Below, piece by piece: positions 43,662-45,249 of a DNA stretch of 64,000 nucleotides (its first letter is position 1; the number at the start of each line of letters is the position of its first letter). Source of the stretch: Shigella phage sb1; the sequence record PQ666539. One strand, given 5' to 3'. The position numbers and the translations under genes were made by a program. Below the pieces are notes generated by a model, which saw nothing but the letters and a program-made list of their open reading frames with translations, made no database searches and was not told where the DNA came from.

Positions 43662-45249
<1,588 letters not shown>

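Follow-up and report, generated by a model that had tools for sequence, protein, structure and literature searches.

The window analyzed here, i.e., the whole stretch of 64,000 nt, is a Tequatrovirus (T4-like) segment reaching from gp14 to gp37, and its closest public records are those of the Shigella phages sb2, pSs-1, and Sfk20 and of Escherichia phage Ec_YwIITB1 (about 96% identity). On the minus strand, it contains the reading frame of rnlA (T4 gene 63, RNA ligase 1/tail-fiber attachment; 43665–44786), which starts with an ATG at 44786 and has three premature stops within it. The first of these is a TGA at codon 132 (44391–44393), which derives from an ancestral GGA (Gly132) by G>T at 44393. 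The second, and the codon under study, is a TAA at codon 183 (44238–44240), with T at 44240 and A at both 44239 and 44238, in the same frame as the ATG; the minus strand around it reads AAT ATT CGT TAA AAT GAA ACA GGC. It goes back to GAA (Glu183), and the coding-strand G>T corresponds to C>A at 44240 on the plus strand. The third is a TAA at codon 374 (43665–43667), where a coding-strand C>A at 43665 altered the last sense codon TAC (Tyr374). As the natural TAA (43662–43664) follows directly, the gene end reads GGA TAA TAA; in all nine Tequatrovirus relatives, it reads GGA TAC TAA. The gene further carries four private missense changes of a radical kind, all of them G>T on the minus strand, namely Ala27Ser (GCA>TCA, 44708), Arg166Ile (AGA>ATA, 44290), Asp198Tyr (GAT>TAT, 44195), and Asp272Tyr (GAT>TAT, 43973).

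The sequence-only reading had described the flagged TAA as the second in-frame stop of an RNA ligase 1 gene, produced by a change from GAA to TAA and separated from the first stop by a 50-codon piece, and had proposed an alignment to T4 Rnl1 as a check. When this alignment was performed with the conceptual protein, residues 1–373 matched residues 2–374 of T4 Rnl1 (PDB 2c5u) from end to end (E = 6e-246), and the two internal stops fell on Gly132 (TGA) and Glu183 (TAA). Two other T4 Rnl1 structures, 5tt6 and 9do4, also aligned end to end (E about 1e-245). Together with the frame read from the ATG at 44786, this confirms both the gene and the rank of the stop. The TGA sits 51 codons upstream of the TAA, leaving exactly 50 codons between them, as had been stated.

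Apart from the stops, the gene has the features of a conserved RNA ligase. Past the flagged TAA, the conserved frame is open to the gene end, and the 373 residues align to Rnl1 of sb2 without gaps and with 97.9% amino-acid identity. The motif I lysine K99 is present in KEDG (ILTKEDGS at residues 96–103). Pfam searches assigned the first fragment to the nucleotidyltransferase family PF09511 (profile positions 1–77 of 227) and the last fragment to the Rnl1-specific C-terminal domain PF20819 (T4_Rnl1_C), and returned no domain for the 50-residue middle piece. The phages sb2 and pSs-1 share with the window the gene order alc, rnlA, denA, and nrdB. An enzyme of 374 residues requires an uninterrupted frame, and the stops at codons 132, 183, and 374 break it. 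A literal reading of the sequence would stop translation after residue 131, inside the nucleotidyltransferase domain; such a product would keep K99 and lose most of the nucleotidyltransferase domain as well as the C-terminal domain, which would make this a null allele.

For comparison, the rnlA genes of nine Tequatrovirus and two Mosigvirus genomes were extracted, and the frame was uninterrupted over 374 codons in all eleven. Codon 183 is GAA in all nine aligned Tequatrovirus genes, so that a single coding-strand G>T accounts for the TAA, and codon 132 is GGA, GGG, or GGT in all nine; the Mosigvirus codons were taken by raw index from unaligned genes and are therefore not comparable and uninformative at both sites. 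The sense codons of the references support the change from GAA to TAA. The earlier reading had named such a codon as the observation that would speak against it, and in this point its criterion was inverted. Within 81 bases round the stop, the plus-strand C>A at 44240 is the only difference from sb2 and Sfk20. A 61-mer round the TAA had no exact match among 504 matching phage records (50,697 searched), the best match having one mismatch, and a 61-mer round the TGA likewise had no exact match among about 500 related records of the 50,697 phage records searched. An exact 40-mer with the TAA was absent from viral, genome, and metagenome contig collections, and its sense-codon version had no exact match in viral contigs. 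Exact-protein look-ups with the NrdB of the window and with the C-terminal Rnl1 fragment returned no identical protein. The flagged TAA is thus present in the given sequence, is private to it, and is not the kind of chance stop seen in frames without constraint.

A shared lesion in Sfk20, as suggested by its shorter “RNA ligase” CDS, was considered and rejected, since the full 374-codon frame is intact in that phage. The 302-codon CDS of the Sfk20 record (MW341595.1; L001, 5401–6309) is therefore an annotation shortfall and not a lesion. Split annotations of essential genes also occur in the other near relatives. In sb2, they affect the genes for the tail sheath and gp34 (L002, 4740–6563; L003, 11696–15565), and in Ec_YwIITB1, they affect gp23, hoc, and nrdB (L006, 10848–12409, 15396–16825, and 45363–46537). 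Sequence errors commonly occur in records of this phage group.

Nonsense mutations in rnlA need not harm a phage on every host. T4 rli (Rnl1) mutants show normal growth on laboratory E. coli, restriction being confined to prr+ strains (PMC3014915). On laboratory hosts, a phage can do without Rnl1, which it needs only for repairing tRNA-Lys after cleavage by the PrrC anticodon nuclease. On this premise, the stops could mark a genuine null allele or pseudogene in a viable phage, and the presence of three of them in a single gene would agree with decay. If real, they would also be expected to cause the prr+ restriction known from rli− (gene 63) mutants (PMC3014915). The gene itself does not have the appearance of a decaying one, however. 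Its private changes number nine, of which seven are G:C>T:A transversions (Gly132>TGA, Glu183>TAA, Tyr374>TAA, A27S, R166I, D198Y, and D272Y); the only two others are synonymous transitions, and there are no frameshifts or further signs of decay. Neither the TGA at codon 132 nor the TAA at codon 183 occurs in any relative. Moreover, seven G:C>T:A changes are no enrichment over the 4.8 expected (P = 0.21), and alc, nrdB, gp36, gp59, and others have G:C>T:A rates equal to or above that of rnlA. A pseudogene specific to rnlA would leave the essential genes intact.

To survey in-frame stops, all sb2 proteins were compared by translation with the window, revealing 31 stops in 22 conserved T4-like genes. 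The affected genes belong to packaging and head (terS, terL with two stops, gp22 with two, and gp23), recombination (uvsW.1 and uvsY), baseplate (gp51, gp27 with two, gp29, and gp48), and tail fibers (gp34 with four, gp35, and gp36), and include early and other genes, i.e., one alt paralogue, alc (two), rnlA (two), nrdA (two, adjacent), gp32, and four small ORFs. By their lowest coordinates, the stops lie at 1858, 2975, 3461, 10042, 10312, 11617, 19075, 20141, 21609, 22634, and 23075, at 23897, 25684, 27586, 29449, 35336, 39687, 43017, 43196, 43382, 44238, and 44391, and at 48397, 48400, 53210, 56717, 56786, 57647, 59156, 60109, and 61230. The Tyr374 change in rnlA (TAC>TAA) falls outside these 31 and is a 32nd stop, likewise caused by C>A. 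With a single exception, the stops of the survey (30 of 31) arose by a G:C>T:A transversion, either G>T or C>A, through the codon changes GAA/GAG>TAA/TAG, GGA>TGA, TCA>TAA, and TAC>TAA. The relatives, examined at the same 19,880 codons, have between zero (sb2 and pSs-1) and four stops (T4_ev240). Downstream of each stop, the frames are about 94–100% identical to those of the relatives, and the alignment to sb2 proteins showed no indels or frameshifts in the genes of the window.

Several details of this survey deserve mention. In nrdA (48397–48402, minus strand), two adjacent Glu codons, GAA GAA, have both become TAA. The TAA of gp34 at 59156–59158 differs from the GAG of the relatives at two positions; G>T makes the stop, and G>A at the third position probably reflects synonymous variation that the true parent carried naturally. 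The exception to the G:C>T:A rule is TTA>TAA (T>A) in the major capsid gene gp23 (11617–11619), the sole in-frame stop of another kind, which hints that a further error class of lower frequency may exist. Two alt-like ADP-ribosyltransferase paralogues in tandem (27928–32040, minus strand) share about 41% identity with each other, in an arrangement also seen in sb2 and pSs-1, and a stop (29449–29451) is present in just one of them. The genes td (49332–50189) and nrdB (45280–46455) align to the sb2 proteins without gaps, and hence neither carries an insertion in this lineage.

According to established T4 genetics, nonsense codons in the terminase, the major capsid protein, gp32, and the baseplate and tail-fiber genes prevent a phage from propagating. 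With stops in such essential genes, no propagating phage can have the sequence in its given form. This contradicts an rnlA pseudogene, since the same mutation class places stops in terL, gp23, gp32, and the baseplate and tail-fiber genes, none of which can be a pseudogene in a viable phage; in total, terS, terL, gp22, gp23, gp32, gp27, gp29, gp48, gp51, and gp34–36 are all hit. Whereas the rli− mutants are viable phages with a defect in a single gene, the same lesions strike essential genes throughout the window here. We therefore regard a genuine loss of rnlA by nonsense mutation as very unlikely.

Many in-frame stops inside conserved genes with otherwise intact frames are also known from phages with reassigned stop codons. 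The stops could accordingly be translated, whether by suppressor tRNAs or a reassigned stop codon of the type found in some large phages, or by a programmed readthrough in rnlA. In recoded genomes, one stop type would stand for one amino acid, would be conserved, and would be accompanied by a suppressor tRNA or a recoding signal. In contrast, TAA, TGA, and TAG all occur in frame here, the residues lost to them are of five kinds (E, G, S, Y, and L), the stops hit early and late genes alike, and they are found in no relative, so that none is conserved. Searches of the 64,000-nt window for tRNA genes and for Rfam elements found none of either. We assign this possibility hardly any weight and consider recoding or suppression excluded.

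With four to six relatives as the reference, private substitutions were determined for the whole window. Among them, C>A (152) and G>T (148) were by far more frequent than the other transversions at C and G (C>G 7, G>C 15) or those of A>C (29) and T>G (37). The share of G:C>T:A among private changes was 34% in the window, compared to 8–14% in five relatives that were each likewise set as focal. At 280 events in 20,699 eligible G:C sites, the rate amounts to 1.35%. The coding effects of these changes (78.9% missense, 10.8% nonsense, and 10.4% synonymous) closely resembled the random expectation calculated from every possible G:C>T:A at coding sites of the window (79.5%, 11.7%, and 8.8%, respectively). 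The other classes behaved differently, with synonymous shares of 68% for GC>AT, 88% for AT>GC, 73% for AT>TA, and 49% for AT>CG; only the small GC>CG class had a lower share (3 of 13 coding changes, 23%). Apart from GC>CG, synonymous shares of 49–88% are what natural divergence should show when purifying selection acts. The window thus represents a genuine and distinct T4-like genome whose natural divergence is mostly synonymous, and to which an overlay of roughly 250–280 unselected G:C>T:A changes has been added. The flagged codon is one instance of this layer, which comprises about 280 substitutions on both strands and extends over positions 1–64000.

The G:C>T:A layer was further analyzed for sequence context, strand, and regional pattern. 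No preference for flanking bases or trinucleotides was detected at the affected sites (chi-square over 16 contexts, p = 0.09), and the slightly higher rate at CCG (1.81% vs. 1.35% overall) was not significant. Base-calling errors at modified bases, which would be linked to a motif, were sought via site context as a possible source, and no motif emerged. There was no coding-strand bias (1.40% for coding-strand G vs. 1.36% for C) and no plus-strand bias (1.34% vs. 1.36%). Strand-coordinated blocks were likewise absent, with G>T and C>A being randomly interleaved (runs test, z = −0.82). One damaged strand or single long reads should have left strand asymmetry or blocks, and as neither was found, both were dismissed as sources. 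A mild clustering is hinted at by an excess of pairs within two eligible sites (13 vs. 7.5 expected). The rate is not uniform along the window; there is a step at about 35.85 kb, with 1.04% of G:C sites hit up to this point and 1.76% beyond it (35.85–64 kb), and none of 500 permutations reached the observed likelihood ratio. No gene or strand boundary at about 35,850 coincides with this step; an error process that depends on depth or batch would be compatible with it.

Regarding base composition, the window contains 20,530 A, 20,530 T, 11,720 C, and 11,220 G, so that A equals T exactly and C exceeds G by exactly 500. This may be a coincidence or a sign of processed sequence.

Taken together, the flagged TAA is very probably one instance of a window-wide G:C>T:A noise and not the mark of an RNA ligase gene that was inactivated, split, or recoded. 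The substitution spectrum, the lack of selection, and the spread over essential genes are direct observations. Because the unselected layer hits essential genes too, the TAA is best understood as a signature of error or damage, or as an artificial alteration, and not as rnlA biology. By this account, an otherwise normal Tequatrovirus genome would have received the G:C>T:A transversions only after its last exposure to selection, with hits on about 1.35% of G:C pairs regardless of strand, neighboring bases, codon position, and gene essentiality. The stops would then follow from codon arithmetic alone, as GAA, GAG, GGA, TCA, and TAC become stop codons under G:C>T:A. As the physical cause, oxidized guanine (8-oxoG type) could have been misread into a poorly supported consensus, or the sequence could have been mutated in silico. 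The two-rate pattern is a point against the noise account, being predicted neither by a simple uniform error model nor by a simple uniform simulation.

The guanine-oxidation (8-oxoG) artefact of sequencing libraries (Costello et al. 2013, PMC3616734) offers a known parallel. It shares with the layer described here the restriction to C>A/G>T, a non-biological origin without relation to gene function, and blindness to selection. The shearing-induced artefact has a low allele fraction (<20%), shows a read-orientation bias, and prefers CCG>CAG (PMC3616734); it should not normally reach a consensus, whereas the changes observed here stand in the consensus and are context-free. Lacking the CCG preference, the window is not assigned with confidence to the published oxidation artefact.

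A layer of this kind could also be a faithful record. The sequence may stem from a single dead T4-like molecule or a clonal non-viable lineage with heavy guanine oxidation or another G:C>T:A-specific load, in which amplification from a single molecule or particle recorded lethal mutations before selection removed them. The pure and unselected G:C>T:A spectrum, extending to essential genes, is consistent with this, and the regional rate difference resembles a physical process more than uniform noise. Against it, a load of 1.35% of all G:C pairs would be very heavy, and the interleaving of G>T and C>A does not agree with one damaged strand, which would give long runs of a single type. We consider such an origin unlikely, even though a dead genome and an error of the consensus are not separable by the nucleotide sequence. 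It is, by the same token, quite improbable that the window is an accurate read of a real, lethally hypermutated T4-like genome, whether by oxidative (8-oxoG-type) or other G-specific mutagenesis, in which the rnlA stops would be real but incidental.

Window-wide noise, the reading we favor, has consequences beyond the codon under study. The codon-level description given by the sequence-only reading is correct, yet it says nothing particular about rnlA. In-frame stops and calls of a “split gene” or “pseudogene” in this window share one trivial cause and should not be interpreted for each gene in isolation; the first rnlA stop is a case in point, as are the stops in terL, gp22, gp23, gp27, alc, nrdA, gp32, and gp34–36. 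Annotations and protein sets derived from this sequence carry about 220 missense changes that are spurious. Comparing the coding effects of each substitution class with random expectation cleanly separates the error layer from natural divergence, and the approach is reusable on other windows. If, on the other hand, a damaged genome had been recorded faithfully, the sequence would be of modest interest as a curiosity in the oxidative mutagenesis of phage DNA, and not with regard to RNA ligase.
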